Shown: positions 2,382-33,116, counted from the stretch's first letter. The stretch: DNA of 33,116 bases from Reclinomonas americana ATCC 50394 (GCA_048213135.1 PS015026.1:262093-295208); one strand, 5' to 3'. Program-made: numbers and translations. Notes: generated from the letters alone by a model not told the origin.

Positions 2382-3296
2382 ATGGACGGTGAGGGCGAGG
2401 AGGAGTCCTCTTCTGCAGTGATTGTGAGTGCGTTGAGTCCACTGCTCGCCCGTGTGCGTGCGTGGAGTGCGCGCGCGTGGGAGGCCGCAGGAGAGCCGCA
2501 AGTTGTCTTGTCTTTCGGTCTGTGTGTGTCTGTTGATCGCTCTCTCTCTCTCTCTCTCTCTCTGCGCGTGCTCATCTCTCACAGTGATTGGCTTGGTGCT
2601 TGGTGCGGCGTGGACCACTGGGCGGTACTCGTCGCAGAGACAGGAGATTGCGGTTGGTCTCCATCAGCCTGTGTCATTGACTCTCCCATGTCGCTCATTG
2701 ACGCACAGGTGCTGAGTGACGGGGTGCGACGACGAGAGCATGCGTTGCTGGAGTGCATGGATCGCGTGCGCCTGGAACAGCAGTTGACGCGACAGGAGGC
2801 GCTCAAGGCGCAGAGCTTTGACGCAGAGTTGCGTCACACCGGCGTGTTGCCGTGAGCTGATCGTCACCCTCATACTCAGCGCAGATGCCGATCGCTGGCC
2901 ACGCGACTGGAACTGGAGCACCGTGAGCGACTGTACAGTGAGGATGCGTTGCGAGTGGTGCAGGAGGAGGCCAGCGTGCAGCAGGCGCGCATGGAGCAGG
3001 CAGAGGAGCGAGCGCGTGAGGCGCGCGAGTGGCTGCTGCAAGCCGAGATGCGTGGTGAGGAACTACGTGCGCGAGTCGACGAGGCGGAGCGCCGTGGTGC
3101 TGCGTTGGAGGGGCAGCTGGCGTCCACGCAGGCGACGGTGGTCGATGTGCAGCAAGCGCTGCAACGAGCGACGCAGACCAATGAGGTGTATCGCTACGTG
3201 ATGGAGCGCAGTGCGCCTGACCTGGCCGCCCACCTGGCCCGCCTCCGTCTCACTGGCCCGAGTGCGACAGGTCTTCCTCTCTCTCGCTGTCATTGA
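2382..3296 (+). CDS. Uncharacterised coiled-coil protein (multi-exon)
   Basis: ATG 2382 (MDGEGEEE). Intron 2828-2884 joins ...SFDAE to CRSLATRLELEHRERLYSEDALRVVQEE... in frame; E/Q/R/A-rich heptads. The 3' end is uncertain. Confidence 0.6.
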
Positions 3297-3457
3297 CTGT
3301 TGTTTTTCGTTCTCTCTCTCTCTCTTGCCATCACTCAACCCCACCTTCTCGGCGCAGACACACACGAATGACACACGTCTCCTCGTCAACCAAAAAAAAG
3401 GCCATGTTTACGGCTGTATGCCTTGACCAACCCCACCATCGCTCACTCGGATCGTCG

Positions 3458-6400
3458 TCACGCCTCCATGGCGGCTGCAGCAGGAGCGCCGTCGCCAACA
3501 GCCTGTATGCGATCGGGCATGCGGAAAATTTTGACGTCGCTGCCGTAGCTCTTGGCACGTGCGGTAATGGCGCTGCGCAGAGAGCATGCCGCATACACAC
3601 TTTCGTGAGTACATTGCTTGAGCTTGGGCGGTACTGCTGGAGGTCACTCACCTCGGGTCCTGTGGCGAGATGAAAATGTACTGCCGTTTGCTCTTGCACG
3701 CCACTTCGAGCACGAGATCAATCGCCAGACGACGGTACGAGGCGTCCTGCGCCCCGTGATACCGCCATAGTCAGTGAGTGAGAGTGAAATGATGGCGTGG
3801 CGCGCCGCGCGCACCATGAAAATGTCAAACTCGTCGGCGACACGGAAGGGCGACTCGATGGCCTCCCAGAGCGCCAGCATGAACGCCACGGTGGTGTACG
3901 ACCGCTCGCCACCACTCAGCTCTCGCACGTCGTGAACCGTGTGCTGTGCCAGCGCACCGGAAGAACCTTCGTTCTCGTTGCCGCCCTCCGCCATGTTCAG
4001 ATACACCTGGGAACAGACAGACGTCAGCGGCGGCCACTTAAACAGTCCCTCGCCATCGCAGCCAACAATCGCACCTTCATCTCCAACTCCATCTTGTCCT
4101 TGTCGAACAGCAGCTGACCAGTGTGGCCGCGATGGCTGAGGAACTGCGTAAAGTTGGAGGAGGTGATTTGCATGATGCGTTGCTGCATGCCGCGCAGGGC
4201 ACGTTGTCGCTCGTGACAGCTGCGTTGCATCTGGGTAACCAGCGCCACTGTCTTCTCCATGTTCTGCTTGGTCTGCGTGGCCTTGGCACGAATGTCAAAG
4301 TAGCGCCGCTCCACTTCGTGCGGATCATCGATCTTTTGACTGTGACGAAGGAAACGGAAGCGGGATGTCAGTCACACATGCACGGTGGAGGCAACAAGCA
4401 CGCCGAAAAAAACGCACTTTTCCATCTCCTGCTGAATACGCGCGCGCACGTCCTTGAGCTTGGTCACGTAGAACTTGCGTGGCCTGTCGGCCTCGACGCG
4501 ATTCGGTGCACCTGCGGCTTCACACTCCGCAATGTTCGCCTGACAGAAAACACAGCAGTGAGCAAGTGGCCGCCCCAAGCAGCGAGCAGGCACGACAGCT
4601 AATACCTGCACTTTCTGACGTGCTACTGCAAACTTCTTCTCTGACTCCGAAAGCTTGGCTCGGAGACGCAGGAAGCGGTCCTTGACAACCTCGGCAGATA
4701 CGGCCATATGCTGCACCTTTTGTTCCAGCTCTTCCGCAATTTTCTGTCAATGAGTACACCTCGTGAGCAAAGCGCGTCACGACATCAATAACAACAACTA
4801 TGGCACTCACCATGGCATCAGTTGCTTGCGCATCTAGAGCCTCAGCCACTCGAGTGGCCTCGACCCACGCGGCTTTCTTCTGCGCCAAAGCACCATCCAG
4901 CTGCTGCAACGAGTCTGCTCCACGCAAAATATTCTGCTCGGCGTCCGCCAGCCTCTGCATTTCGTCGTCGATGCGCTGTTGCAGCTGATCGATGGCGTCT
5001 TGCACGTCGGGCTCATCGATGACGCTGGACTGCAACGTCTGCAAGTCATCCTTGGCCGCGGACAGTGCTCGTCTCGCCTTCAGCAGCTCGCCCTGCGGAA
5101 TGAGCAGTGAGCGAACACATACAGCCGACAGACACATCGACAGCGATGCCTGCGTACCTTCACTTTGCGAAGCTCCTGCTCGCATTTGTTCTTCTCGGCG
5201 GTGTGCACCTTGAGTTCTGCGGTCACCACGCTCACGCTGTGCTCGTACTCCTGCGCTTCGCGCTGATACTGGGCCAGCTGAACGCTCATGTCGCTCGTGA
5301 GACGAGGCGGATCGCGCATCGCTGGTCGGACACTTCTCGAATTTCCTCTGCGTGGCCAACTCAGCGTCAATACAGCAAAAGGACGTGACCGCCAACTGTC
5401 ATCAGCATCATCCAACGCAACTGTTGCTTCTGCTCGCGACCGTCGAGGTCGATCGCCTGGTTGGCCAGTGTGCGCATGGGCGGAGCCGGAATCACCTCAT
5501 CCCTGCCAGCGAAAGATAGTGAGGTCGGAATCGCAGCAAGTATGCAGCGGGAGGACGCAACATTTCGGCCTGCGATTCCACCAACGCCACGCTCTCGATA
5601 CCTCTCTGGTCGATCAGCGCGTTGAGAATGGTCGGCCCAATCACCGACGGATCCGAGTGCTGTCGGAAAATCGTTAACACAGCTGCACTCTTTCTCTCTC
5701 ACACACACACACACGTACCCAGGCAGACTGCACCGACTCGTCGACCGTCAGCACCTCAAACATGGTCTTGCGCACATGCGCCAAGCGAGGAAAGTTGTAG
5801 ACGNNNNNNNNNNNNNNNNNNNNCAGTCACTTGAAGGCCGAGCAAGTGAACAAGATCGACGCCGTGGAGTCGCGAATTCACCAGCTCGAAACCGCTGTGG
5901 CTCAGGTTTTGTCGAGTTCCTGCACACACCCCTTCTCCGTTGGTTGCTCATTCGATCTCTCAGATGACGGCGGCCGAAGAGCAACTGAGGGTGCGCAGCG
6001 ACGAGATTGTCGCGTATCACGAGCAGACAGCGGAGAAGCTGGAGAGGGCACGAAGCGGATTCTCCAATATCCAGAACCAGTTGCGTTTCGAGCTGCGACG
6101 TCAGCGCTTCTGGTTATTGTGCTCACACAGCGGCGTGGCTGCAGACTGCTCGACTTGCAGGCGGCATCATCCAACAAGATGCTTCTGTGGGGCCGCTACA
6201 CGGACCGAGTCAATGCAGCGATCGCCAGCAACTTGAAGCGCTTCCGCCGCCCGCCGATCGGACCCATTGGTGAGTGTTTGTGCACGCACGGTCATAACAT
6301 CATCGTGACGGATCTGACCCGCGGCTCTCTCCTCCTTGTGCCATCGTTCGTCAGGCGCACTGCTGCGACTCAAGCCGGAGGAAGCACGTTGGGCGCGAGC

Positions 6401-9075
6401 CGTGGAGTCGCGCTGCTTCCACGAGCTGAACACGTACCTGTGCGACAACTTTGAGGACAGCAAGCGCCTGCAGGAAATTCTGAAAGAAGCCTATCACTCG
6501 GATCAGTGAGTAGTGGTATCGCACGAGGGCATTAGCTGTTGTGAGTGGCTCACTGTTCCCGCTTGATCAGGCACAAAACACCGGCAATCATTGTCTGCCG
6601 GTACCGCAGCGANNNNNNNNNNNNNNNNNNNNNNNNNNNNNNNNNNNNNNNNNNNNNNNNCGGCAGACACAAGACGTCGGCCATTGCAGATACTCACAAC
6701 AGCGGCGACATGGGAGACAGAGAATAACGCAACCGCACGCGCTCCGTGGCAGCGACACGCGCATGATCACGCTCCTTCTCCAACCGGGTGATGTTGGCCT
6801 GGTACTTCTTCACCGTGTCTTGAAGCGACCCCATGTCACGATTGAGACGATTTCGCTCGCTGGTGGCTGTGGTCAGCTCCAGCCGCCTCTCTTGCACCTG
6901 AGCGTTCAGCGCCTCAAGTTCGGCAAACATTTGCTGATATCGCTCCGCAGCCGCAGCAGTCTCGGCTTGCAGCGGCGCATTGTCGCCCTACGACACGCTA
7001 ACAATGAACAAAGGCAACAAACCATCACAAGTGGAAAGGCAACACACCCTGACGGCAGCATACTCGGCTTCCGCGACTTGCACCACTTCCTGCCACTTGA
7101 GCACTTCCTGCTCCGCCTCGGCAGCGACCTGCACACCACCGATAACGAGGTCAACACGCGGCGTCACATAAAAGTGTTCCAGTGAGCGGAAGCAAACGGA
7201 CCCTCTCGGCCGCAGCGACGTCGGACCACACAATCTGCTGCAGAAGATTGTTCTCCTCCTGATTCAGCTGCGTCAGCTTCTGTTGCTCCTGGTACTTCTT
7301 CTGCCAGTAGACCAACTGCTCCTGGAGGGCCTGGAAGCCGACTTGACGGTCCGCCAGCTCTTGTTGCATCATCGCCATGTCCGACAACACGGTGCTGTGG
7401 TCCTGAGCCATGCGCTCAAGCAGTGTGCCCTTGACTGCGAGAGGCGAAAGCAAATGCGCGGTGAGCGAACGATGACAAACGAATGTTGCGGGAGAAGCGA
7501 GCAACGCACTGAAGAACTCGTACTTGGTCCGCGGCGAACTGCCGTGCAAGAATGTGCGCGACGCGTCCTGCGTGAGCACCGTGCACGGATTGTCGGGCTG
7601 GATGTTGAAGTAGAGCATGATCTGCTCCAGGTCCTTGCGGTGGCGCGACACAATGTTGCCCCTGGCCGACTTGATGCGGTACTCGCTGCTGCCGTTCTTG
7701 TTGATCTGCGCGAAAGCGCCAAAAGAGAATCCGGTGAGCACAACGTGCGCCTTCACCAGCAGCACCGCATCCACCCACACCAACCTGTCGTTCCACCGTC
7801 AGCGAGTCGCCAAAGTCCTCCGGACGGTAGGCCTGCGGGCCCATGTTGTTGATGGTCACGGAAACCACAGCGTACCTGTGTGGCATGCAGGTGAGCGACA
7901 AGAGTATGCAATTCAATTCATCGACACCGTGACGTCGCACGCAACGATCCGTCCTTGTTGACCAGCGAGCCGAGCGAGGCGCCACGATTGGTCGTCGACG
8001 CCCGAGTGCCGAGACAAATCTGCAGCGCCGTGATGACCGCACTCTTGCCACCTGCGCGCGAGTGAGTCCTAGAGAAGCACATGCATGTGTAGAGAGGGAA
8101 GCGTACGCAACTCCCATTGAGGCCAATGATAAAGTTCACGTGCCGGCCAAACTCAATCTGCAGGTTGGAGTGACACCTGGAGAGACAAGAGTGGAAATGA
8201 GCCACGAAATGCGCTGGTGCATATCAGAAGCAAACGCAACATGAAGTTGCGCAGATGCATGCGTTGCTGTACACACAGACACACACATGTAAGTAACACT
8301 CCGCACGCAACACACTTTACACACAATGACGCAACAATAGTGCCAGCTGCACACATGAGATCCGGGTCAAAGCCGGCCAGCTCTGCATCGACAGCCGGCG
8401 CGCCAGCTGGAGATGACGGCGCAGGTGAAGGTGCCGCGGCCGCACTCTTGGCGGAGCCTGCGCGCTTGTTGATCGACGGAGACACCATCATTGGCGACAT
8501 CGCCGCATCGACATGCACTGTGCGCATGCAAATGTCAGATGCATGTTCACAGAGAGAGGGCGGGAGAGAGAGAGAGAGAGAGAACAAGAGAGAGTGCATG
8601 GTGTGAGAGTGTGCGTCACAGTGAGGCAAATGCACATTCATGTGTAACTCTTCTTGTGTGTGCATGCGTGTGTGCGAGAGAGAGAGAGAGAGGGAATCAG
8701 CGTGCGCGCATGTGTGAGTGTGTGTGCGTGTGTGCGTGCACAGAGAGAGACACTTTCATGACACTCTGATGATGTGTAACTTTGTTGTTGCGGAGGTGAC
8801 AGCTGCTCAGGTGCCGGAAAGTCATGCTCGTGGTCCACCTCCATTTGCTGTGCACGAGGCGCAGGCGCAGGTGGCGGTGGCGGAGGAGGAGGCGGAGGAG
8901 GAGCTCTGTTGCTCCTTGACTTCAACTGGACCTCCTCCTCCGCAAACTCCTCGTCCTCTTCGTCATCATCCAACACCTTCTTGTGCAACTTCTTCTTCCG
9001 CGCACTCTGCAGCGCACAGAAGCGCACAATCAGAGAGAAAGCAAGCACATGTGAGAGTGCAAAAAGGCAAACCAT
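3458..9075 (-). CDS. SMC6: Structural maintenance of chromosomes protein 6 (SMC5/6 complex), many exons; segment 5824-6612 is assembled in the opposite orientation
   Basis: Spliced translation gives GTIQRMHLRNFMCHSNL..VNFIIGLNGSGKSAVITALQICLG..ASTTNRG (Walker A), FNIQPDNPCTVLTQDASRTFL (Q-loop), coiled coils, hinge (PPIGPIG; NALIDQRGIE), LSGGERSYTTVAFMLALW..SPFRVADEFDIFMD (signature and Walker B), QYIFISPQ. Stop at 3458-3460. Confidence 0.95.
5824..6612 (+). other. SMC6: Inverted internal SMC6 fragment (coiled coil plus first half of hinge) between two N gaps
   Basis: Plus-strand exons encode HLKAEQVNKIDAVES...FRRPPIGPIGALLRLKPEEARWARAVE...NTYLCDNFEDSKRLQEIL...PAIIVCRYRS, which is SMC6 hinge sequence. 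Flanked by N runs 5804-5823 and 6613-6660. Confidence 0.9.
8550..8750. repeat. Compound (GA)n/(GT)n tract in the unusually long second SMC6 intron
   Basis: Alternating GA and GT runs, seen directly. Confidence 0.8.
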
Positions 9076-9186: not shown

Positions 9187-12100
9187 ATGCTCTCGTCGGG
9201 GCAAGAGCTCACGAATGGCGATGGAGTCGTGCAGGAGTTCCTCTTCTTTCTGTGGAAGAGACGGTCGCGGCATGAGGACCACTTTGCGGGGGTGAGAGTG
9301 GCGCAGACTGTGCTCTTCAATCTCGGTCGACCACAGTGGTGGTTCTTCTCGTCGTCGTCGGAGCCGAGTGGTGAGAGAGAACAGAGAGAAAAGAGAGAGC
9401 ATAGGCAGGTGACACTCACACTCGCTCGTTCTCTGACACGCAGGTGCGCTCAAGAAGAAGAGCGAGGCGAACATCCGAACAGAGAACGTGCGACAGGCAT
9501 TCATAGCTCCGAAGAAGCTGCAGCCGGCGCTTCCGGCTGGCGGCACCAGCAGTGGCTTCAGCGCTGGTGTGACAGTGAACAGTCTGTTCATCAGCAGCGA
9601 GGGCGATGCCAAGCGCGGAGATGCCGATGTCACGATGCAGTTTCACACAGCGGAATCACTGGGTGAGCTCCCTCCCACCTGCTCCCTCGCGCGTGTAGAG
9701 GCTCATTCGTTGCTGTGATTCGTGAAGATGCGCTGTTGTTGGACTCGAGCACGCCTCGAAACGGGTTGCTGCAGGAGTTTGTCATTTCGCAGGAGGATCC
9801 GTCGCGACCGCGTCGCAACTGTGCGTCTTGCTCCTCTCCGCTTGTCTGTGTGTACGTGGTGGTGATGCTGACCCGCGTGCGCGCTGCTCAGCGGTTCTGG
9901 TGGTGGTCTGGTCGCCGTCGCTGATGGTGGCCGAACGACGCACCAACATTTATCGGATTGATGACGAATCGCGGACACTGTATGAGCGTGTGATGACACA
10001 CGATGGGGACTTGCGATACAGCGAGACGGGTACGTGCACTTGCTTGGCGATGTGGTGGCGGTGGTGGTGGACAACTCTCTTCTGTGGATCTGAACGGGAC
10101 ACGCATGTACCGTCTGCAGAGCCTGTGCGCTCGGACAAGCTGCTGTCGCGACTGGAAGATGCCTGCCAGTCCATGGTCGCTCACATTGAGGGCGTGGAGA
10201 CAAAGAAGACACTGGCACGCATGTGTCTGCACTTCAAAATTGATACCAGAGGTGCGTGCACGGGCTGCCGATGAGATGTTCCGATGTGCACTACTCATGT
10301 GGCGCGTGTGTGTGCAGATCGACTGGTGTTTCTGTACTGCACGTCGCTGCGTGTTTCGGATCGACAAAAGGTACACAACGATTATGCGCATAAGCATACT
10401 TTGACGACGATATTCGGAGGAACTAAGCCACTTTTTTGCAGGATATCTACAGAGAAGTGTCGGCTCCATCATCTCGGTCCACCTCGTTGGCCCCCAGTGG
10501 CCGCGCCTCCGCCGTTTCGTACCCAAGCAATTGTGCTGCGTGTTGGCCGCACGTACGCTGTGCTGACATGCAACTGCTGCGCGCGTATGTGTGTGTCAGT
10601 CCAAGCGACAGGTGCAGCTTCCACCGCCGGCTCCAACTAGCGCCACACTTGCACGGCCGGCGTCGAACAATCGACGCATGAGGTGTGCAAAACACGCACA
10701 TGCCTCTGCTATCCACACTGTCTCCTCACATTTGTGCTTCGCGCGCAGCTCCATGTCGCAAGTGGCGCCGTCACGCACGGTCAGTACTTGGCGCTCGTGT
10801 CGTGCACCTTGCCTGCTCATCTAACTCGGTGTCTGCCACAGGCCGATGCACGTGCGCATTTTGCTGGCGCAGCAACACGCTCTGCCTCCGTTGCCTCGGT
10901 GTTTACGCTGCAGAAAGTTGTGTGCCTATCGTTCTCGTTGCTGTCGAGCCCGCTGTGTCTGACTCTGTTCCACCACAGTTGCGCACACCACCCAAGCCGC
11001 AACCTGTGCGCTCACTCAATCTGTCGTCCACTGCTCGGGAGACACGCATCGCAGAGAAGGAGGCTCTTGATTGGACATGTCATGCGTGCCGTCGTCAAGT
11101 CGGTACGTATACGTGCGCTGCGTTGCGTGGCTGCAATGCAGGGTTCGTGTTGGTGACTGTAATATCTCGGCTGCAGACGGTTCGCAAACACCACATCACA
11201 TGACGCTGCGCAACGTCATGGTCTCTGCCGGCGATGACATTCGTCCGTACACTGTGCCATTCGACCCGGAGGAGCGATTCAACATTGGTCGCTTTGCACC
11301 GCGCGTTGCGTTTACTGCACTGCACGGCTCTGCCGCCACTGATGTGTGGCCGCCTGTGCTGACCTCGGTTCCACTTTCACAGTCGAAACCACCGTCGCCC
11401 TCTGTTGTCGAGGAGACCTTTGATGAGAGCATGCTGATTCCGCTGGAGGGACCGATTTTCCATTGGGTGACTGATTACGAGAAGGGTGAGGCTTTTGTTT
11501 TTCAATCCACCAAGAATGAGTGAGTTGCAGCTAACAGGCAAGTCTCGCAGTGATTTCAAGTGTGGAATCGTCTCCACAGCTCGTCGGTGGCAGCCTCCCG
11601 GCGTCGCCATCTGTTGCAGCACCGACCATCGATCAGGGAGAGCATGCAGTGCTGGAGGGGAGCGGCTTGCACGACGCGGTGGGAGAGGGGGAGGCAGATG
11701 AATCCACGGCGGCGACAGCACAAGGTGCAGATGAGACTGACGGTGGGGAAGCTGTGGTCTTTATGAATTCGGAGGAGCAGGATGAGCTGCCGCCACCGCA
11801 GCCACAACACCGTCCGTGGGAGGCCGTGGTCCGGGAAGTCGAAATGTCAAGAGTCAACTCGCCGGAAATGATGCGCATGACATCGCACAGCAGCTATCGT
11901 CCTCGTTGCGTAGTGGGTCAGTTTTGTCTGTGCACACGCGCACACGCCACCAACTTACACTGTCGGTCTGCAGGTGAAATGGACTGGCGACGGGCGGCGC
12001 CAGTGTCCGTTCTCGCGGTGCGTCCACAACTGACATTGGACGAGTTCTGTGAGCTCTGTCGCACTGGCAAGCTGTTGGACGAGCCTGTCGATACGTGCGA

Positions 12101-14058
12101 CTCGTGTTACTTGCAAATCACGCGATAGTTTCGTCGCCACCGGCTTTGCCACTCCTGGAGGAAGAGAGAAAGAGACTCATCATTCTTCTTGTCGACGACG
12201 CAGTTTGAGCACGTACTCGCGAGGCGGCAAGCGTCGACGACTCAAGTTTGGAGCCGAGGACTCGCTCTCGTCTTCGGTAAAACTGCCGTCGGTGAACAGT
12301 CGCGGCTCGAACTCGACCAGGAATCGCTCGAAGACCAATTCGCCGCCCAAGACACGCAGTCGACACAGCCGCGCGCACGATCATCGCGCCAACGACGGCT
12401 ACGGGGATGAGAACGTACACATTGTCGTGCAACAACGGGTACCTGAGGTACACGGGCACATGATGGAGGAGGAGGAAGTGATGGTGGTGGACGACGGACA
12501 GCACAATGCGGAGACGCGGCTGACGCGCTCGGCCAGCAAGTTGCGTCGTCACTCGGTCAATTCGTCTCAACGAGAACGAATGCTCACAACTGACCTCACA
12601 GAAGCGGCGGTACCGGTTCCTACTTGCTGTCGGCTTCGGAGGTGCCGTATCGAGTGTCGCATTCGACGTCCCCGACCAAGCGCGCAGCGCGCGGTGTGCC
12701 GCTGCACTCTCAGGCGGTGCGTACACGCTCTCTTTTTTCCACCTCTTTCGATTGCGGCATGTTTCTCACTCGTCTTTCCGTGAGCAGCGACATGAAGAGC
12801 TGTGGAAACGAAGGCTAGTGACCAATACCGAGGAGGACCAGCGGATGGCGTCGTCGCTGTTGCAGCTGGACGCGGTGTTGGAGTCGGTCGTTCGTTCGCA
12901 CACTCGCGTGCAGGTCGGTGTGCGTGGTCAGCTGCCGTTTGCGCTCCACGAGACACAGAAAGCACAGTGCGTAGTCTGTGTGGTATCTTGGATTTCTCTT
13001 GCCCAGCGATAGTTATTTGACTGTGTTGTGTGCGTACAGGCTGCGACGCGCCATTCATCGTGCACAATTCGATCCGCAAGGTGAGCACTCAACTCTGCGT
13101 CTTCGCCGGTACATGGTCACGTAAATCTCATCATTTTTTGTTGTCGTTGTTGCAGACCAAGACGAGGGCCCCTTCTTGCTGCCTCTAGCGAGGCAGTCGT
13201 CAAACTCGAAGCCGCCAACGTCGCCGGGTCGTGCCAAGCAGCAGAACCGACCAGGAGCTGTGTACGCCAACACCGTGCTGCCGCGCAAGTATCCGGTCGT
13301 CGGTGGTGGCGGCAAGGCCAAGTCGTCTCAGGCGTTGCCGGCCGCGCGAGGTGCGCCGCGTCGTGCGGCCACAGACGCCGCGATGCGAGTGCCACCGTTG
13401 CGACGAGTGGCCGGGTCTGTCGAAGACATGGACGGTGCGCACGTGTCACGTGTTCTTCACATGGTGCTGTCGCTGACCTACTCACGTGGATGGTTGGCGC
13501 GGTGCAGATGATCGCATCGATGGTGCGTCGGACATGGTGGAGAGCGACTTCGAGATCAAGACGGAGACGGATCCGACTGCGCCATCCACCAAGCCTGTGT
13601 CGCCCTCCAACTCGTTCCTGCAGGGCGACTTTGAGACCATTGACACTGAGCTTCGTGTGGACGAGGCGGCGGCAGTGGAGAGTCTCGGCGCCACCACCGC
13701 TCCACCTCCCAGACCAGCCGAAAACGCAGCTCGTCGTCGGCGCCGCGCCGATGGCAACGATGAGAGCGTCGGCGGCGGCGGAGACGACGAAAGTCTGCCG
13801 GCGCCTGCGTCCATTGGTTCTCCCAAACCGCGAACCGGTGGTGGGGCACGCACGCTATCCACGCTGCTGTCACCACAGCCGAAGACGGCGACGGCCCCAG
13901 TGTCGCCGGGCCACGATCCCACGCGCCAGATGACTGCGGCCGAGATTGCGGAGAACCGACTCCGATTATCGAGACTGGTGGAGGAGTTGCAGTTGGGCTC
14001 GCAGGGTGACGACGGCATTGATTTGGCGCACGTTGCGCAACCATTGCAGTGGAAATAG
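9187..14058 (+). CDS. Large uncharacterised protein: globular N-terminal domain, split CxxC...CxxC motif, long disordered C-terminus
   Basis: ATG 9187. Spliced exons give LFNLGRPQWWFFSS, GLLQEFV, VVWSPSLMVAERRTNIYRIDD..LYERVMTHDG, RMCLHFKIDTRDRLVFLYCTSLR, then WTCHAC and DTCDSCY. The apparent TAG at 12126-12128 is removed by an intron starting at 12128. Final stop at 14058; linking all downstream exons into one gene is inferred. Confidence 0.7.
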
Positions 14059-16741: not shown

Positions 16742-16786
<45 letters not shown>

Positions 16787-23534: not shown

Positions 23535-23566
<32 letters not shown>

Positions 23567-24993
23567 TCCTTCTCGCAGTGCACTGCTTGTGCTTGGTCGC
23601 AGTGAGTCGCTGCGTGTTTGCGTGCGCACACCCTGACTCGATTCGAACTTTTGCAGTGCTGCTGCCGTATGAGACCCAGGAGCGACTTGGCGCTTTGTTG
23701 ACGCAGTTCGATGGACCTTTGCCGCGGCCGCTGCTGTTTACCGAGTTCTCTGGGGCCTTTACGGACTTTCTGGATAACTGGATGTGCTCGGTGCTCAAGT
23801 ACAAGGTGCACGAGTCGTTTGGCGTGGTGATTCTGGCGTGGAGTGCCGAGGCGGCCGAGCACGCCATGAAGTTGTATTCTGCGTCCGGTCGTATCGCCGT
23901 CTTTTACGATCCTACATGGTTTGCCCCTCCTCCCCGATGGCTTGTCGAGTCGGTGTGTCTTCTAACCACGTGGCACGCAGGTTCAACATGGATGAGGATG
24001 CCGCCAGTTTCAACACGCCCGTGTACAACCAGTCGCTTCGAGCCCGCGATCCGCTGTTCATGTATGCGGTTCGTCTCCTCGCTCTTGTCTCGCATCCTCG
24101 ACTCCCCGTTCACCTGTTGTTGCGCAGCTGAAGCGCGGACACCCCGTCATGCATGCCGACGCCGACACCACCTTCACCACGCCAATGAGCTTGTTCCCCG
24201 ACGTGCGACAGTGTGACATGGCGTTTGCGATCGACGACGAGTTCGGCTTTGGCGATCAACTGACTCACGAAGAGATCGACTTTTCGATGCGGAAGCCATG
24301 TTTCGTGCTCACTCTCTCGCTCTCTTGCATTGACTCGCGTGCCGTGCCTGACCAACAACGATGCAGATATGGTGAATGGCGGCTCGTGGTTTGCTGCACC
24401 GACCACACGCACCATCGAGTTCTTCGACTTGTGGATTCGTTTGAGTGGTCAGGCACCAATGGCCAACGACCAAGTGTCGCTGCGAGGTTGGTTCTTTTGT
24501 CCCCTTTTCCTGCTCTCTTCTGTTTCACTCGTCACTGACGCCGTGCACAGAGGCGCTGAAGCCTGCCAAGTATCGCGGAATGGCCGATCTGAGACCATTC
24601 GCCGACGGGCAGCAGCTGTACCGCGACCTGCAGGCCGACATGGACACGGTGGCTGGCGAGACCACCTTTCAGATGTGTTGTTTGCCCGCGCTGCAGTTTC
24701 CCAGTGGTGCGCTACAGAGAGGGCGCGAGCGACAACCACTGCTGTGTGCACGTCTGACTTTCGTCGCATGCACAGGTCACTTCCTCTTCCGCTTCACGGA
24801 ACAGTTCAATCAATTCGGCGGCCCGCAGGCCGCACTCCTTTACCACTTCAATTTTGTCAGATCGCACCAGGAGAAGCTCCAACGTGTTAAGGAGCTGTTC
24901 CCGGAGCAGTGGTTGTTGGAGTACGAGCCGCAGACGTGCAAGCGACTAATCGTCGAGTTGCATGCGGCGGCGAGAAAACAACATCGTAAGTGA
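23082..24993 (+). CDS. Nucleotide-diphospho-sugar transferase (GT77/PF03407-like), type II membrane protein, paralog A
   Basis: N-terminal hydrophobic anchor and Ser/Thr stem; DFLDNWMCS; DxD motif MHADAD; VNGGSWF; NDQ; LPALQFPSG; YHFNF..HQEKLQRVKE..WLL. Confidence 0.85.
23537..23568. repeat. (TTTC)n microsatellite in an intron of GT paralog A
   Basis: About 8 TTTC units, seen directly. Confidence 0.9.
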
Positions 24994-25035
24994 ACTTTAA
25001 TAGATACACAACCCTTCTTGTGCTCTCCCCCTTCG

Positions 25036-26828
25036 TTATGCTGGTGTCACCAGCCGTAACCTCCGTTCTTCGCACTGATCGCGCTCCGATTCAACGAGCC
25101 ACAGTTCGGGGTACTGTGTGTGTGTGTACGTGTGTGACCAACCGACTTCGCGCACGACACGCAGCGGTGCACAATAACTCACCATCTCGCGCACTTTGTT
25201 GATCTTCTCGTCGTGCGACTTGAGAAAGTTCCAGTGCGCGGCGTCGACCTGCGCCAAGTTCTTGCTGTACTTTACCAGATCTTCGCGCTTGCGGAAGAGG
25301 AACCATCCTGGACGCGAGGCAGAAATTGATTGAGAAACAGTTGTGTGTGCACATCAGCAATCTCCTCACCGCTCGGATAGCGAATCACATTGAGTGTACA
25401 CACGCGCAGCTCCGTGTCCCCGGTGAACGTGGGCAGCGAGGCACTGCGCAGATGCTGTGCGGCCCAGTGATGGCGATCGCGAATCTCGACGGGTGTGGCG
25501 TCGCCCATGTAGGTCGTGGCCTTCAACACCTCTGCGATGCGCGGGTTTAGCGAGCTTGAAGATGCAGTGGCGGCGCACGCGCGCACGCACGCACGCACGC
25601 ACCTTGCATGGCGACTTGGTCGTTGCGATCCTGAAACTCACGTGAATCATTCGCTCGAATCCACTCCTCCATGAAGCGCTCGGTGCGGGCATTGGATATC
25701 GCGAACCACGTCCCGCAGTTGAACATGGCTGCAGTAAGGGTGAGTGAGTGTCCCCACATGGGAGGACTCAACGGCAGCGGCATGAGTTGCGAGCGCAACT
25801 CGGAGGCGAAAACGAAAAGTCGAAATCCTCTCGCACACCCGACCCGTGCTCCTCGTCGATCGCAAACGCCACGTCGCACTGATCCATGTCGGGAAAGTAG
25901 CGCACCGGCTTCACAAACGTCACATCGGCATCGGTGTGGAACACGGCATATCCACGGCGGATCTGCACGGCACGGGCGAGTGAGTGAGAGACAGACGATC
26001 GAAAAGTGTCGCGAGGCGATCGACCACCACACCATGTGCAACAGCAGCGGCTCACGCGACTTGCCGGCGGCGTTGTAGCGCTTCGTGTCAAACGTGTGCA
26101 CCTCCTCGTCCATGTCGAACCAGTCAAAGTCGTAAAACACTGCCAGACGACCCGGAGACGAGTACCTAGAGAATGAAACAAGGACAAAGGTGAGCGGGGA
26201 TGAGAAGGCGGCATGCAACGACATGAGCCGAGAACCGTGCAGCAAAGGTCTCGGCGGTGGCACGCGTGGTCACCAGCACGACAATACCAAACGTCTTGTC
26301 CATCTCGTGCTTGAGCACCGAGCACAGCCTGCACTGCGTCATGAGCGATGATGCGAACACCTTGTTGGGAGATTGCTCACTCACCAGTTCTCTAGGAAAT
26401 CCTGAAAGGCCGCCGAGCCATCGACCACAAGCAGAGGAGAATGCCGCGGAAACTGACTCAGAATGCGATCCAAGTGCTCCACCACCGTCGCCGGAAGATC
26501 CACCGGGAACGATACTGCAAATCTGCGATCAGCAATGTGCAAGGAAGGATGACACGTGGGCCCTCTCCGGCACTCAACATCTCTCATCGCCACGCACTGG
26601 TGGCGACGTCGGCACCTTGCCTCTCACTCGCGTCACCCAACGTCGCGCCGCCTGCACCTCTCTCGCCACCAGACCATCTCTGTCCTTCTCCGCAGCAGTC
26701 GACGATGCACTGCCTCCATTGCCGCTGAACAGCAGCACAAAGAGCACAACCAGAGCCAGAAGCACAATGGCCACCAGTGTGCAACATGCGCGTCGGCATG
26801 GGCGAGACGCGCCACTGCTCACAAGCAT
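25036..26828 (-). CDS. Nucleotide-diphospho-sugar transferase (GT77/PF03407-like), type II membrane protein, paralog B
   Basis: TM segment LVAIVLLALVVLFVLLF; DFLENWLCS; VFHTDADV; FNCGTWF; RNDQ; YPSG; AHWNF..HDEKINKVRE..LWLVE; TAA at 25036. Start is ATG 26828 or the in-frame upstream ATG 26879. Confidence 0.85.
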
Positions 26829-26894
26829 CTGTGGTGAGGGGTTCGGATTTTCATAGTCGTTTTTCGCGCCCACTCTCATTTTTTCGTTGGCGAG

Positions 26895-28698
26895 ATGGCA
26901 TCATCGTCGTCGTCATCAGTGGAAGACTGCTCATTGGAGTGGCTTCCACTGGAAGGCAATGGCGACAAGCGCGTGCCTGCTGTTGCGTGCCTTGCTTGCA
27001 CTCAAGTCATCAGTGGTTACATCACACTGAACTGATCGTCGTATCGTTGTAGACACTGGTCAGTGTGAAGCAACTGCAGGCGGCGCATCGTCGCGCAGAG
27101 AGGCAAGTGGGGGCGAAGCATGCGACCACGCTGCACCACATGCTGCACTGGTTGTGGGAGGCTGTGCGCGTGCAGGAGACCATCGAGTCGGCGGTGCAGC
27201 TGCGCGATCTGTACCGCGCGCAGTGTGCGTGTGAGCAGGTGGGCGCGATGCATGCGGATGCGCTGCGCACGAGGTACTTGCAGGCGTGGTTGATGGTGCT
27301 GGAGCGGCGCTTTGATGAGGCGCGCAAGGAGCTGCGTGAGCTGTATGCGGCGCAGAGGCGGCGACTGGGCGCGCTGCATGCGGACACACTGCGCACACTG
27401 TGCTTGGTGACTGCGGTGATCATCTTTGGCGATCTGGACTACAAGACTGCGCGACGACTGGTCGATCGCCTGGAGCGCACGGTGCGAGTGTGTGTGGAAG
27501 ATGATCTGCGCAGCTTGCTCGTTGCTGAGAGAATGTGAGTTGTCTTTGGTGCAGGTTCGCGACTTGTTTGGGGAGCAATGTACGCTCTTTGCCGATGTGG
27601 CGTACTATGCGGGCTGCGTGGCGGAGCACGAGCGGAGCTTTGGCGAGGCGCGCTCGCTCTTCTCGCTCTCAATGGCCGTGTACTCGCGGCTGTGTGGCGA
27701 CGCGCATCCGGCCACGTGGCGGTGCCGTCTGCGTATGGCGTCCATGGCGTTTCAGGAGGTGGGTTGCGGAGAGAGAGAGAGAGAGATCGCTTGTGGAGTG
27801 AGCACTCACATGGCTTGCAGGAGAACACGGCCGTCGCCGACTCACTGTACGCCGACTTGCTTCGCCAGTCGGAGATTGCGGCGTCGTCGCACCCCGATCG
27901 GTGTGTGCCTGCCTCTCTGCCACCTCTGGCTGCGTCGATTGCTGACTGGCGGTGTGCGCAGGGTGGCCATTCGGCAGTCTGCCGCCGCCTTTGTGTCGCA
28001 GGTGCATGCGCAGATCGACGTGGCCGACGGGTACATTCGGGAAAACATCACCGCGTGCACCGGCACATACGGCGACGAGCACCCACTCACGCTCTCGTCG
28101 CTCTCCAATCGAGCCATGCTGTGCATGGTGGCTGGCGACAATGACGGGTCGCGCGAGATCCTGCTCCGCCTGCTCCGCGTGCAAGACGCCGTGCTGGGAT
28201 CCGATGTTGCGCGCAGAGACAAATGATGAAAAATATGATGGTCGCGATTACTCATCGCCCTTTTCGCCGCAGCACCGTGACACACAACTGACGCTATTCC
28301 GCCTCATGACGATTGCTCGTGAGCGCGGCGACAAGCGCGATGCCGAGGAGTACCTGGGACGTATTCGGGCCAACGCCGAGGCCATGGAAGACCGCATGTC
28401 GCGCAGCCGGCAGGTGGCACTCAAAGCCGCCAAGGAGTCGGGCATGCCGTGCCTGTTCCCGCCGCAGGTGGACCGCCTGTTCAGCACTGAGGAGCGGGAT
28501 GGCGGTGACGATGACGAGGAGGGACTGGAGCATGGCCACGGTGAGGATGGCGACTGTGCGACGTGCGCACGCACCAAGCCCAACATGGCCAATCGGTCGC
28601 TGGCGGGCCGTCTGATCACCATTGGCTTCCTGCCGCTCATTCTCGTGGTGCTCGCCGTGCTGTTCCGCAAGTACTGGTTGCCCAACTCCTTGATGTGA
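26895..28698 (+). CDS. TPR-repeat protein (kinesin-light-chain-type ~42-aa repeats) with a C-terminal transmembrane anchor
   Basis: Repeated G.xH..T motifs (VGAKHATTL, VGAMHADAL, LGALHADTL, CGDAHPATW, YGDEHPLTL, LGSDHRDT); terminal LITIGFLPLILVVLAVLF-RKYW. Confidence 0.8.
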
Positions 28699-28820: not shown

Positions 28821-30758
28821 TCATCGAGCACGAGCGGGACTGCTCGCAACATCTGCTGCGTGCAGGTACGACGAAGGCGACTGGCCGATGGAGCCGACAT
28901 GGGAACGGAGGATTTCCATGAGGTGCGCATTGCGCTTCCGTTCCACGTCGAGCTGCGTCTCGGCATCCGCCTTCTCCCGCTCCAGTCGCGCAACGCGAGA
29001 CTCGAGCAGAGTGACCCTCTCGCTGATGCACTGCGTTTGCATCGTGGCCATGAGCGCCTCCAGCGCCGCCACGCGCTTCTCCACGGCACCACTGGCCGCC
29101 GGCGAAAACAGCGAGGATGACGCCATTTGGTCTCCAGCACGCGGACTCCTGCCGCTGTTGCTGCCACTGCCAGCACCGGATGGCGACAGCCGCGGCAGTG
29201 AGGCACGGCGAGTCAGCTTGTGTGGTGAGAGCAATCCGGCTCCGCTGTCGCCGCCCTCGGCAAACGACACTTGAATGGACCGACGGCGAGTCGACTGAGC
29301 GCCCGGCGTCATGAACCCAGGCGTGCGCGGCGACAGCGTGCCCACCGACCACGTGTCCTCCGAGTCGGCCTCCACATCGATCGACAGCTGCGGGCGACCG
29401 TCGCCCTCTCCATCGCCACCATCCTCTTCGCCGTCCTCGTGTCGGTTGGCGTACGCCTCAATGATGCGCTGCGCCGTCGTCACCTGCGTGTCGGTGATCG
29501 TGGCATACAGTTCCGCGTCCTCAAACGGCGCCAACTCGTGCAGCGTCACCGACGCCGGGTCAACCACCAGATCGGTGCTGCGCGTCAGATCGAACTGCGG
29601 TCGGCGCGGCGGGTTGTCGTTCTCGTTCCACGCATAGTCAAACGAGTGCAACAGACGGGCCTCCAGAGTGCGCGCATTCGCCAGTGTGGCGGTGCACGGC
29701 ACCGAGCCAGTGACACAGTAGCGCACCCAGATCTCGAGTCCGCTCTCCAGTGCGTCGCACATCAGGCGCCTGTGCATGTGGGGAGGGAGGGAGAGGAGGA
29801 GGAGGTGAGTGTTGGCGACCTCAGCAGATTTCTTCTTTCTTGCGCGCATGTCGCACCTGAGCTTGTCGTTGCTGCAGGCATTGTAGTACAGCGACGAGAC
29901 GCGATAGCCGAGGACCGAGCAGGCGCGCACATAACACACACCCCAGCTGTCGGTCTCCACATCGTGCACGGCGAGCTCGACCACACCCGGCTGCTCCGGC
30001 GCCTTGATGCCCTGATTGTCGACCACGGGGCGGCGGCGATTCGACATGCGATCAAAGCGCAGACCACGCTCACGCAGCGACGGGCCATCCTCGGACGACA
30101 GCAGGCGCTGCCAGTTGGCAAACTGCCAGCCGCTCTGATCCAGCACCGCATCGGCATACTTTTCGCGCAAGTACCGCCGACGCAGACGCAAGCCGCCCGC
30201 CGTCTTGAAGAACGTCAGGCCGCAGTCGCCCTCCAGATGCACGCCCAGCGCACCAGCATACGTGCCAATGACAATACCCCAGCGGGCATCGGAGAGCTGC
30301 TGCACGCGGTCGCCCGGCTTCACTTGCCACTCGGCTAGGCACTTGTCGGCCTCCGTGTGCATCTCATACGCCTGGCCCGTCTTGCTGCAATAGGTGCACT
30401 TGGAGGCGCCTTCCGTGGGCACAATACGCACTCGGCGCAAGCGGTAAAATTCCTCGTGAGCGCGCACTCCGCGGTAGCATCGCGCGCCGCCTTCGCCGTC
30501 AAACTGAAAGTACAACTCGCCATCGTCGACTCCGACGCCCACAATGGTGGCCAGACGCGAGATGTTCTCCTCAGTGAGGTGCTCCTGCGCGCGTGGCAAT
30601 GTGGTGAGTGACTGAGAGAGGGAGAGGGAGAGAGAGTGGGGAGACGCAACAATCACGTTGACGACTTGTCCGCGTCGGAAAAAGTCACCAAAGCGCAGGC
30701 ACGCGGCATCCGACGTGCGCACTGGGATGATCTGTCCTTCAGTAGTGCAGTACTGCAT
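28821..30758 (-). CDS. Uncharacterised protein with N-terminal beta-rich (SH3-like) repeats and a C-terminal coiled coil
   Basis: 645-codon ORF containing two probable in-frame introns (~30585-30656 and ~29770-29845). Two similar repeat units near the N-terminus; heptads VEKRVAALE..LESRVARLEREK. Confidence 0.75.
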   Translation of the reverse strand: MQYCTTEGQIIPVRTSDAACLRFGDFFRRGQVVNVIVASPHSLSLSLSQSLTTLPRAQEHLTEENISRLATIVGVGVDDGELYFQFDGEGGARCYRGVRAHEEFYRLRRVRIVPTEGASKCTYCSKTGQAYEMHTEADKCLAEWQVKPGDRVQQLSDARWGIVIGTYAGALGVHLEGDCGLTFFKTAGGLRLRRRYLREKYADAVLDQSGWQFANWQRLLSSEDGPSLRERGLRFDRMSNRRRPVVDNQGIKAPEQPGVVELAVHDVETDSWGVCYVRACSVLGYRVSSLYYNACSNDKLRCDMRARKKKSAEVANTHLLLLSLPPHMHRRLMCDALESGLEIWVRYCVTGSVPCTATLANARTLEARLLHSFDYAWNENDNPPRRPQFDLTRSTDLVVDPASVTLHELAPFEDAELYATITDTQVTTAQRIIEAYANRHEDGEEDGGDGEGDGRPQLSIDVEADSEDTWSVGTLSPRTPGFMTPGAQSTRRRSIQVSFAEGGDSGAGLLSPHKLTRRASLPRLSPSGAGSGSNSGRSPRAGDQMASSSLFSPAASGAVEKRVAALEALMATMQTQCISERVTLLESRVARLEREKADAETQLDVERKRNAHLMEILRSHVGSIGQSPSSYLHAADVASSPARAR

Positions 30759-31711
30759 GTGGTGACGTCTCTCTCGTTCTCCTCAAACACACAATGACCA
30801 GTGCACCGAAAAACGACATTGCGGTTTTTTTGTCGGGGAGCGAAGTTTTTTGTCCTGTCGACGCTTTTGATGGCTCGGTTGTGGATTCTTGCACAGAGAA
30901 AGCCAGGCCCGTGACTCGCACTGGCGACGTGTGAGTAGTGCGATCACAAGCGGGACCGAATTCAAACCGGGGGAAACGAGTTCGAGTTCGAGTTCAAACG
31001 GATGGATTTTGTGGACGTGGAAGTCGACCTCCAAGTCGAGCGATCCGCAGCGTCAAATACGGGCGAAGCTAGTCAGCTGTTCATGTCTGGTCTGGTCGCA
31101 GACGTGGATTTCGAAGCCGGGCATATATATCGACGATATCGGCCGCGGGTCTTCCGATATCGATTTTCTGTCGCGCTCACCGAACCTTCGTGTATGGAAC
31201 GGTATCGGCGTGATCACCCACCAGTGTGTTGTAGTTTGAATCAGCAAAGCTGTCGTTGATGATGCAGTTGCTGATATTCTGACGTCAAATAATCGCAAAG
31301 ATGCTGTCGGGATGTCGAGTAATATCGGAAATCGCGATCGGACCGACCGAGTTCGCCAACCATTTCCGGGTACAGAGAGAATCACGCCGCGGCCACTCCT
31401 GCCTCCTGCAGGAAGAACACCATCCCACCTCCCGAACACACGGTGCCGCACAGCAATTCGGAAAGCAGAAAAACTCGCCTCTTGAATCCGACCGTTACGC
31501 TGGGCGGAATTTTCATTTTGTCAGTGCTGTACCTGTTCGTTGCGCGCGCACGCGTGCCTCTCATCACACACACACTTGTGCACTCGCGCGACAGACAGAC
31601 AGACACACGCGCACGCGCATACGTACGTACATAGAGAGAGAAACACACACACACAGTGCTCCTCCACACACACGCGCGCGCGCTTTGACAGAGGCGTGCT
31701 GGTGAGAAGAA

Positions 31712-33116
31712 ATGCATCAGCGCGCTCGTCGACCGCGCATGCGGTCGGTGCTGGAGCAGCACGCTGGGGGCTTTGATGACGACGATGGGTACGTCGATGC
31801 GGGTGGAGGCGCAGCCACAGCAGCAGGAGGCGCAGGCATGGTGGCGGCCAGTGACAGTTCAGATGGTGGTGTGGGTGGCTCACCGCCGTCCTCGCGACGC
31901 GGTCGCCAACGAGAGCATCACGTGCAACGACAACTTCAGCAGCCGCCGCCTACACAAGGTGCGCCGCGACCAGTTGCGGCAAAGGCGGTGGCGGCGAGTG
32001 CAACAATCCCTCCCACGGCGGCCGCCTTGGCCAAGAGTGGTGGGCNNNNNNNNNNNNNNNNNNNNNNNNNNNNNNNNNNNNNNNNNNNNNNNNNNNNNNN
32101 NNNNNNNNNNNNNNNNNNNNNNNNNNNNNNNNNNNNNNNNNNNNNNNNNNNNNNNNNNNNNNNNNNNNNNNNNNNNNNNNNNNNNNNNNNNNNNNNNNNN
32201 NNNNNNNNNNNNNNNNNNNNNNNNNNNNNNNNNNNNNNNNNNNNNNNNNNNNNNNNNNNNNNNNNNNNNNNNNNNNNNNNNNNNNNNNNNNNNNNNNNNN
32301 NNNNNNNNNNNNNNNNNNNNNNNNNNNNNNNNNNNNNNNNNNNNNNNNNNNNNNNNNNNNNNNNNNNNNNNNNNNNNNNNNNNNNNNNNNNNNNNNNNNN
32401 NNNNNNNNNNNNNNNNNNNNNNNNNNNNNNNNNNNNNNNNNNNNNNNNNNNNNNNNNNNNNNNNNNNNNNNNNNNNNNNNNNNNNNNNNNNNNNNNNNNN
32501 NNNNNNNNNNNNNNNNNNNNNNNNNNNNNNNNNNNNNNNNNNNNNNNNNNNNNNNNNNNNNNNNNNNNNNNNNNNNNNNNNNNNNNNNNNNNNNNNNNNN
32601 NNNNNNNNNNNNNNNNNNNNNNNNNNNNNNNNNNNNNNNGTGAGCGCGACGCCACCTACGAGGATGAGTTTGAGCGTGAGTACGATGACGATGACGAGGA
32701 GGAGGAGGGACAGCGAGACGAGGACGACGACGAGAGATCAGCAGCACAGCGACGTCGAGGACCGCCCACTGCAGGCGGTCCAACTGCCAGCCCCGGTTCC
32801 GTCATGGTGACCGTGGTGCCGCCGTCCACCTACTATGATATTAGAAGAGGCGAGAGTGATGGCGCGAGTGGCGGCGTGCCCATGGCTGTCCAGAGAGCAA
32901 GACGAAATTCGTACGTGCAAGACCTGACAACGGCCACGACCAAGCGGAAGCCTCCATCACAGCAGGCTGCGGGTCTTATTGAGATGAAGTTGCGTGTGTC
33001 ACGGAGGGGCGGGGGGCGCGTTTCGATATCTGACACATTGCGTTTTATTGTGTTGTCGCAGATGTGTCGTGTTTGGCGACAGGGGCACTGGCAAGAGCAG
33101 CCTGTGCACGAGGTTT
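31712..33116 (+). CDS. Ras-superfamily small GTPase domain protein with a long low-complexity N-terminal extension (3'-truncated, gapped)
   Basis: Intron 32989-33061 (GTTGCGT...CGCAG) joins LIEM to KCVVFGDRGTGKSSLCTRF, a beta1 plus G1/P-loop GxxxxGKS. Upstream frame is open from ATG 31712 on both sides of gap 32046-32639. Confidence 0.75.
   Translation, partial: MHQRARRPRMRSVLEQHAGGFDDDDGYVDAGGGAATAAGGAGMVAASDSSDGGVGGSPPSSRRGRQREHHVQRQLQQPPPTQGAPRPVAAKAVAASATIPPTAAALAKSGGXXXXXXXXXXXXXXXXXXXXXXXXXXXXXXXXXXXXXXXXXXXXXXXXXXXXXXXXXXXXXXXXXXXXXXXXXXXXXXXXXXXXXXXXXXXXXXXXXXXXXXXXXXXXXXXXXXXXXXXXXXXXXXXXXXXXXXXXXXXXXXXXXXXXXXXXXXXXXXXXXXXXXXXXXXXXXXXXXXXXXXXXXXXXXXXXXXXXXXXERDATYEDEFEREYDDDDEEEEGQRDEDDDERSAAQRRRGPPTAGGPTASPGSVMVTVVPPSTYYDIRRGESDGASGGVPMAVQRARRNSYVQDLTTATTKRKPPSQQAAGLIEMKLRVSRRGGGRVSISDTLRFIVLSQMCRVWRQGHWQEQPVHEV
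32046..32639. other. Assembly gap
   Basis: Run of N. Confidence 1.

Follow-up and report, generated by a model that had tools for sequence, protein, structure and literature searches.

A second class of 5' splice sites, beginning with GTT, in a 33-kb nuclear region of Reclinomonas americana

Genes of the window and introns fixed by homology

The window analysed here, a stretch of 33,116 nucleotides from Reclinomonas americana ATCC 50394 (GCA_048213135.1 PS015026.1:262093-295208; positions are counted from its first letter), is eukaryotic nuclear DNA of approximately 58 per cent G+C that is dense in genes and holds many short introns. Our subject is a class of these introns that begin with GTTGCGT or a close variant of it. 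The genes that matter most are SMC6 on the minus strand (approximately 8500 to 3458), two convergent PF03407-like glycosyltransferase paralogues (A, 23405-24993, plus strand; B, 25272-26879, minus strand), and a TPR gene on the plus strand. Four runs of N interrupt the 33 kb (5804-5823, 6613-6660, 17331-18098, and 32046-32639). No Rfam family was detected in the window at gathering thresholds, and a search of it for tRNAs returned none.

Gene models were obtained by dynamic programming, with GT..AG as the only intron rule, codon scores given as log-odds learned from the window itself, and a rough score for the acceptor and the branch. One run of this gene finder, which we call unbiased, had no donor model, and the final models were made with a learned two-component donor model. 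The resulting table contains 66 introns, 62 of them modelled and four placed by hand (donors at 8335, 11905, 12128, and 32989). Donors spelled GTT[GT][CA]G[TC] are referred to as GTT-class and those spelled GT..G[TC] as canonical. Many of the 62 modelled introns have the model as their sole basis, and the training of the donor model is self-reinforcing, but the boundaries of 20 introns in the table (8 GTT-class and 12 canonical) are pinned by homology. The pinned GTT-class introns and two canonical introns for comparison are listed below; a slash marks a splice junction or the exon-intron boundary, and the last three exon bases are in lower case.

8267..8335 (-), SMC6 intron 1: att/GTTGCGT, 69 nt, phase 0; AAGTI/QRMHLRNF is gap-free, and the GC alternative adds one residue
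8177..8240 (-), SMC6 intron 2: cat/GTTGCGT, 64 nt, phase 2; NF/MCH, which the homologues shown conserve, is restored, and the alternative donor gives NFMLCH
8052..8111 (-), SMC6 intron 3: gga/GTTGCGT, 60 nt, phase 1; an insert in Walker A in the PDB alignment if retained, and a gap-free junction if removed
7876..7945 (-), SMC6 intron 4: atc/GTTGCGT, 70 nt, phase 2; KDG/S..YAVV has the same length as in the six homologues shown
5503..5561 (-), SMC6 hinge-end intron: aat/GTTGCGT, 59 nt, phase 2; RGIESVALVESQAE/MDEV is gap-free, and the intron was chosen by the unbiased gene finder
24300..24366 (+), intron of paralogue A: cat/GTTTCGT, 67 nt, phase 1; position and phase as at 25799, gap-free
25729..25799 (-), intron of paralogue B: cga/GTTGCGC, 71 nt, phase 1; position as at 24300, and the GC alternative breaks the equal spacing
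28206..28272 (+), intron of the TPR gene: gat/GTTGCGC, 67 nt, phase 0; fixed by the TPR profile and the repeat spacing
3747..3814 (-), canonical SMC6 intron: atg/GTGCGC, between DEFDIFM and DASYRR
7435..7509 (-), canonical SMC6 intron: tca/GTGCGT, at YEFF/IKGT

The spliced SMC6 protein was assembled and aligned to 60 full-length homologues. The junctions at 8335, 8240, 8111, and 7945 fall in gap-free conserved columns (AAGTI/QRMHLRNF/MCHSNLQIEFGRHVNFIIGLNG/SGKSAV...KDG/SYAVV), as do those at 7784 (GTTGGT), 7509 (GTGCGT), 6270 (GTGAGT), and 3814 (GTGCGC). When the 60 nucleotides 8111..8052 are read through instead of being removed, an alignment to SMC6 structures in the PDB shows an insert of 20 residues exactly between GLNG and SGKS. 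The exons on either side of the 7945 intron are colinear with PDB chain 9lwi_A to within one residue, and the exon 7511-7705, which aligns to residues 148-210 of the same chain, is likewise colinear with the exons before it within one residue; exon 7785-7874, searched alone against the PDB, gave no match. Among 1.84 billion representative sequences, the closest relative of the most conserved SMC6 exon is 55 per cent identical at near-full coverage of the exon (56 per cent at any coverage), and the named top relatives are taxonomically scattered (a fungus, an insect, and a heterolobosean). The first pass of the gene finder misbuilt the head of SMC6, and permitting the second donor class repaired the model.

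Paralogues A and B, with 129 of 368 residues identical in a nearly gapless alignment, were anciently duplicated and share three intron positions (24069/26032, 24300/25799, and 24487/25602). Their donor class is the same at all three: GTT-class in both genes at 24300 (GTTTCGT) and 25799 (GTTGCGC) and in neither gene at the other two positions, which suggests that the class is tied to the site. The exons flanking 24300 match PF03407 at 63-106 and 112-146, and no in-frame alternative donor exists within 12 nt. Each paralogue also pins the private introns of the other (23919, 26384, and 26235). All six modelled donors of gene A begin with GTT. The TPR gene exon that precedes 28206 stops at position 39 of TPR_10, a profile of 42 positions, and the junction LGSD/HRDT preserves the G-x-x-H spacing of the other repeats of the protein, whereas the alternative donor would give LGSDVH.

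A reading of the window from its sequence only had listed 16 donors needed to restore reading frames (11 GTTGCGT, 2 GTTGCGC, and 3 GTTTCGT), and every one of these strings lies at the coordinate and on the strand given. Seven are pinned by homology or paralogy (8335, 8240, 8111, 5561, 24300, 25799, and 28206), and seven more belong to frame-consistent models, built by the gene finder (2828, 5421, 6080, and 26982) or by hand (11905, 12128, and 32989). The GTTTCGT at 10514 was not upheld as a donor, its flanking frames scoring negative and giving it no coding support. Conserved motifs do fix the introns at NFMCH, GLNGSGKS, and LGSDHRDT, as had been proposed, whereas the GTPase motif KCVVFGD, cited with them, depends on a frame model placed by hand. 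Together with 7945, which the list had lacked, eight boundaries are exact to the base, and the GTT donors are real starts of GT-AG introns. Their coexistence with ordinary GTGCGT, GTGAGT, and GTACGT donors is likewise borne out by the gene models.

Two classes of donors

An unsupervised position matrix with two components, iterated on the donors selected by the gene finder, separated them into classes of 73 and 27 per cent. The main component reads nnG/GTGnGT (G at -1 in 79 per cent, G at +3 in 64 per cent, G at +5 in 92 per cent, and T at +6 in 66 per cent). The second reads nn(T or A)/GTTGCGT, with G at -1 in only 2 per cent, T at +3 in 90 per cent, G at +4 in 90 per cent, C at +5 in 74 per cent, G at +6 in 90 per cent, and T at +7 in 79 per cent. 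The prediction that GTT donors would carry G-T at +6/+7 instead of +5/+6 therefore holds among the donors of the window. Even the weak G at +7 of canonical donors has its counterpart at +8 of the GTT component (46 per cent each), and the heptamer GTTGCGT equals GGTGCGT, the canonical string from -1 to +6, at six of seven positions. The unbiased run selected GTTGCGT at four donors, GTTGCGC at two, and GTTTCGT and GTTGAGT at one apiece.

GTT-class introns make up 20 of the 66 introns in the table (approximately 30 per cent) and 8 of the 20 pinned ones. Fourteen are spelled GTTGCGT, and GTTGCGC, GTTTCGT, and GTTGAGT account for two each. Of the remaining introns, 37 are canonical and 9 belong to neither class, three of the latter beginning with GTGCGA.

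The sharpest difference between the classes lies outside the intron. No GTT-class intron (0 of 20) follows an exon that ends in G, as opposed to 31 of 37 canonical ones (Fisher P-value = 1.9e-10), and the contrast persists in the pinned subset (0/8 versus 11/12; P-value = 7e-5). Conversely, the GTT class accounts for none of the 36 donors that follow a G at -1 and for 20 of the 30 that follow another base. The classes also differ in phase (phases 0/1/2: 3/5/12 for GTT-class versus 19/12/6 for canonical introns; P-value = 0.002), the GTT-class share being 12/22 in phase 2, 5/19 in phase 1, and 3/25 in phase 0.

In other respects the two kinds of introns are alike. Median lengths are similar (67.5 nt for GTT-class versus 71 nt for canonical introns), as is G+C content. 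A CT[CG]A[CT]-like branch motif is found in 18 of 20 GTT-class introns (median distance to the intron end, 18.5 nt) and in 32 of 37 canonical introns, CTCAC, CTGAC, or CTCAT lying approximately 19 nt before the end in both classes; the acceptor score favoured branch-like motifs, so this result leans toward a match. The acceptor is CAG in 20/20 GTT-class and 33/37 canonical introns. The GT-AG ends are partly by construction, as the gene finder permitted GT..AG introns alone, but at the pinned sites they are fixed by homology. The GTT class thus exists as a class with exact boundaries at eight sites, a displaced consensus, no G at -1, a phase bias, and a branch and an acceptor shared with canonical introns. 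When all 66 introns were compared with each other (blastn-short), only stretches of GT repeats matched, and no pair of GTT-class introns was linked.

In most eukaryotes the donor has a purine at +3. In this window, T at +3 is also frequent in the normal register (22 per cent of the main component), as in GTTGGT at 7784 and 24487, GTTCGT at 24069, and GTTTGT at 20718 and 21715. Two modelled, unpinned donors on the plus strand, at 19966 (acg/GTTTGCGT, with two extra T) and 23523 (gag/GTTGGCGT), look further displaced and follow a G at -1.

Further GTT-class introns and their surroundings

The remaining GTT-class introns, together with one candidate donor, have gene models or frame continuity as their basis.

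5348..5421 (-), SMC6 intron: aca/GTTGCGT, 74 nt, phase 2; gene model only, in a gap-rich part of the alignment
6080..6144 (+), SMC6 intron in an apparently flipped contig piece: cca/GTTGCGT, 65 nt, phase 2; gene model
6727..6733 (-), GTTGCGT at the end of an SMC6 exon: candidate donor; the open frame ends soon after, and the acceptor is lost in the N-run 6613-6660
2828..2884 (+), intron: aga/GTTGCGT, 57 nt, phase 2; unbiased and final gene finder, joins a long coiled-coil open frame
11905..11973 (+), intron: ctc/GTTGCGT, 69 nt, phase 1; placed by hand, frame continuity only
12128..12203 (+), intron: ata/GTTTCGT, 76 nt, phase 2; placed by hand on frame continuity, removes an in-frame TAG
12540..12601 (+), intron: caa/GTTGCGT, 62 nt, phase 2; unbiased and final gene finder
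14480..14592 (-), intron: tgt/GTTGCGT, 113 nt, phase 2; final gene model only
14947..15014 (-), intron: aaa/GTTGAGT, 68 nt, phase 2; final gene model only
26515..26578 (-), first intron of paralogue B: gat/GTTGAGT, 64 nt, phase 1; unbiased and final gene finder, unpinned
26982..27063 (+), first intron of the TPR gene: gct/GTTGCGT, acceptor uncertain; final model only, with a first exon of 23 nt
30585..30650 (-), optional intron in an open frame with a GIY-YIG match: att/GTTGCGT, 66 nt; gene model, read through without a stop, so that the frame does not need its removal
32989..33061 (+), GTPase intron: gaa/GTTGCGT, 73 nt, phase 2; placed by hand, junction MK/CVVFGD

Six GTT-class donors in the table extend the earlier list (GTTGCGT at 7945, 14592, and 30650 on the minus strand and at 12540 on the plus strand; GTTGAGT at 15014 and 26578 on the minus strand), and only 7945 among them is pinned.

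Between the N-runs 5804-5823 and 6613-6660, the contig piece 5824-6612 appears to have been placed in the scaffold in reverse orientation. Its hinge exons (RFRRPPIGPIG...; Pfam SMC_hinge, E = 0.027) are on the plus strand, and SMC6 continues on the minus strand on both sides. From the 6080 intron to the hinge motif PIGPIG, the alignment has no query-specific gap. Farther along SMC6, a coiled-coil exon (4627-4743, in the region 4540-4810 of the minus strand) is present in one model and skipped in another, and either GTAGCA or GTACTA may be its downstream donor, so that the SMC6 model is provisional in this region. A word-based protein search with an SMC6 coiled-coil exon found no match.

The GTPase P-loop (CVVFGDRGTGKSSL) lies in a frame that lacks a start codon and is not the one read upstream. 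The optional intron at 30650 is one of two in-frame optional introns modelled in an open frame of 653 residues (28821-30782, minus strand) with a weak GIY-YIG match (PF19239, E = 4.8e-6). A word-based search found no relatives of this frame, the ESM Atlas gave no usable match, and a metagenome scan with it returned 205 pattern matches, none of which was confirmed. The word GTGTGTG is nearly confined to the sense strand within gene spans (32 sense and 2 antisense copies, with 67 outside the spans); GT repeats are located in introns, and some act as GTGTGT donors in the models. In the 16001-18000 bin, G+C drops to 41 per cent, largely due to the 768-base N-run 17331-18098.

Recognition of GTT-class donors

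The best explanation of these observations, and one that we consider moderately probable, is that GTT-class introns belong to the GT-AG introns of the major spliceosome and have a 5' splice site of a second, regular type, which would be read in a register shifted or bulged by one base. We infer three parts to it: pairing with U1 in a shifted register, a one-base bulge at the U6 stage, and relief of a coding constraint. In the common type (G/GTGCGT or G/GTGAGT), the signal would consist of the last exon G, the G at +5, and the T at +6. In the second type, N/GT-TGCGT, the recognition string would lie one base downstream and wholly within the intron, so that the intron G at +1 would take over the pairing with the U1 5' end from the exon G at -1. 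At +2 or +3, one U would be mismatched or bulged, the G-U of +5/+6 would be moved to +6/+7, and cleavage would still occur before GT. Such a signal would be independent of the last exon base and could therefore be used where that base cannot be G, mainly after the second codon base (phase 2). Being wholly intronic, it would suit sites at which -1 is constrained by coding, which would account for both the bias in phase and the occurrence of A or T at -1.

Shifted and bulged registers between 5' splice sites and U1 are experimentally established in human cells (PMC4856993), where all validated non-canonical registers amount to 1.5 per cent of 5' splice sites and the bulge +2/+3 register is predicted for 68 of 201,541 sites (its Table 3). 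GTT-class donors resemble the human shifted-register sites in that the pairs with U1 would be moved by one base, -1 is not G, G-U comes one base later, and the cut is at GU. What distinguishes them is that the human sites are rare exceptions, whereas the class reported here comprises 20 of 66 introns, has a tight consensus, and is correlated with phase; its register, however, is read from sequence. The bulge +2/+3 register also has an extra U right after GU, downstream of which pairing resumes. In that register the exon G at -1 remains paired with C9 of U1, and G at -1 is absent from all GTT-class introns. A pure bulge with exon pairing kept is therefore disfavoured, whereas each of the features expected of a shifted register (no G at -1, mostly C at +5, and a consensus that returns one base downstream) was found. 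Thus, of the shifted or bulged register proposed in the sequence-only reading, the shifted half is favoured and the plain bulge is not.

Pairing was also modelled with ViennaRNA. When the 5' end of U1 was adapted to C at +4, either as ACGUAC (the Mastigamoeba end, as reported in bioRxiv 10.1101/2022.06.08.495308) or as a hypothetical ACGCAC, the structure predicted was exactly the shifted helix, with an energy of -5.3 to -8.6 kcal/mol as compared with -1.5 to -3.0 kcal/mol for controls. If the register is shifted, this organism is predicted to have a U1 whose 5' end deviates from the standard one.

Several points weigh against this explanation. With the standard U1 5' end, GTT-class donors reach only -0.6 to -1.7 kcal/mol in any register, versus -8.9 kcal/mol for cAG/GUGCGU, and the modelled shifted helix is convincing only if the U1 of the host differs from the standard one. 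The depletion of G at -1 exceeds what a shift alone predicts, as canonical donors have approximately 19 per cent G at -2, and the U found at -1 in 9 of 20 GTT-class introns is unexplained by pairing. The excess of phase 2 is due to unpinned introns, 3 of the 8 pinned GTT-class introns being in this phase. All junctions are predicted from genomic sequence, and the sample is limited to one 33-kb window. Twelve of the 20 GTT-class introns rest on gene models and frame continuity. There is also partial circularity, in that the donor model behind the final models had already learned the GTT class, while the unbiased run selected just eight GTT-class donors. Finally, in a local test of whether each GT bridges open reading frames, GTTGCGT passed at 3 of 20 sites, and three other settings gave 1, 5, and 4 passes in 20; the test depends on its parameters, being significant under two of the three other settings, and carries little weight.

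The weak predicted pairing with standard U1 is common ground for two alternatives. In the first, a dedicated variant small nuclear RNA (snRNA), either a second U1 or a U11-like molecule, would have a 5' end fully complementary to GUUGCGU, while ordinary U1 reads G/GUGCGU. Such a molecule would account for a class so sharply defined that 14 of its 20 members have the exact heptamer, and lineages with co-evolved U1 ends are known, such as Entamoeba (ACAAAC) and Mastigamoeba (ACGUAC) in bioRxiv 10.1101/2022.06.08.495308. However, the heptamer is one mismatch away from the canonical string from -1 to +6, so that one snRNA can serve both classes, and the Rfam scan revealed no snRNA gene in the window. 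In branch motif, acceptor, length, and base composition the class matches canonical introns, unlike U12-type introns, and this sameness of branch, acceptor, and length argues against a separate spliceosome. We regard a dedicated snRNA as unlikely. A U12-type origin as such was rejected: although U12-type introns are also a second donor class beside a major one, the branch and acceptor here are those of the major class, and neither an [AG]TATCCTT donor nor a branch of the TCCTTAAC type occurs.

In the second alternative, GTTGCGT would be recognized without a U1 helix, as a site bound by proteins (U1C, Luc7, or TIA-1-like) or as one optimised for U5 or U6. Such a mode of recognition would fit the A or T favoured at -1 and the lack of G there, which base pairing leaves unexplained. 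Yet the motif is the canonical string displaced by one base, down to the G at +8, as predicted by a register of nucleic-acid pairing and not by an unrelated protein site, and to this alternative, too, we assign a low probability.

It is very unlikely that the class is a chance or modelling artefact, in which GTTGCGT, a frequent G/T-rich word of the sense strand, was mistaken for a donor. GTGTGTG is strongly sense-biased as well, training of the final models drew on a donor model, and the bridging test is unstable. Nevertheless, eight boundaries were fixed without the donor model, and the contrast in G at -1 survives in the pinned subset. The word counts also differ from those of a generic G/T-rich word. 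GTTGCGT occurs 21 times on both strands, versus 8.18 (sd 2.68) in 100 dinucleotide shuffles, none of which reaches 21, and within gene spans it is found 15 times in sense and once in antisense orientation (P-value = 5e-4), whereas control words one letter away or nearly so show no strand bias (sense/antisense: GTTGCGC 6/5, GTTGCG[AG] 5/4, and GTTGCTG 5/6). GTTTCGT (4 copies versus 3.6 in shuffles; 46 of 100 shuffles reach 4) and GTTGCGC (15 versus 12.1; 24 of 100 reach 15) are not enriched as words, and their status as donors therefore depends on context alone.

Least probable of all is that GTT is exonic and the intron begins three bases later at GC, as a GC-AG intron or as one of two tandem GT/GC isoforms, for even though every GTTGCGT and GTTGCGC has an in-frame GC at +4/+5 and the extra residue at 7945 would match the spacing of the human chain, that residue breaks NGSGKS at 8111 (giving NGSCGKS), NFMCH at 8240, the distance from G to NF at 8335, G-x-x-H at 28206, and the paralogue spacing at 25799, and the GTTTCGT and GTTGAGT members have no GC there; the rejection applies to these five sites and does not extend to 5561, 7945, or the unpinned sites. 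Three further candidates were set aside: a slide of both intron ends by one base (TT..GN), which would cost 28206 its conserved H; families of introners or transposon-derived introns, as GTT-class introns have no mutual similarity beyond splice signals; and an origin by a single G>T change at +1 of G/GTGCGT, which recreates the heptamer but shifts the frame.

Returning to a second regular donor type read in a shifted register, its setting has partial parallels among other protists. In bioRxiv 10.1101/2022.06.08.495308, Entamoeba combines GUUUGU donors with an ACAAAC U1 end and Mastigamoeba combines GUGCGC with ACGUAC. Reclinomonas is likewise a protist with atypical donors, its main class having C at +4 (the GUGCGY type), but each of those two lineages, as described there, has one transformed consensus, whereas two registers would coexist here within the same genes. 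The main class, GTGCG[TC] with a CTSAC branch, resembles those of Mamiellales, Thecamonas, and Mastigamoeba as presented in that work. Mamiellales such as Ostreococcus also share short introns with this window, which is far more intron-rich and whose proteins lack close relatives in the libraries searched. In the literature on the donor heptamer and on shifted or bulged registers, we found no lineage that uses such a class widely, although a genome paper on this organism, or the supplements of other papers, could hold one. What would be new, therefore, is a shifted register for a large share of introns, for which the human precedent is only a rarity.

We tentatively propose, as a possibility somewhat short of even, that Reclinomonas is a two-register lineage, in which approximately 30 per cent of introns would have the entire U1/U6 string inside the intron as a stable and routine system, with a splice-site strength independent of the last exon base and probably with a U1 adapted to C at +4. 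Gene finders with a single donor matrix would miss or misplace GTT-class introns. If the proposal is true, the organism would offer a natural setting in which to study how cleavage is positioned while the U1 helix is out of step with GU, would show how U6 handles an extra base, and would allow the trade-off between splice signal and codon constraint (G at -1 versus phase) to be tested.

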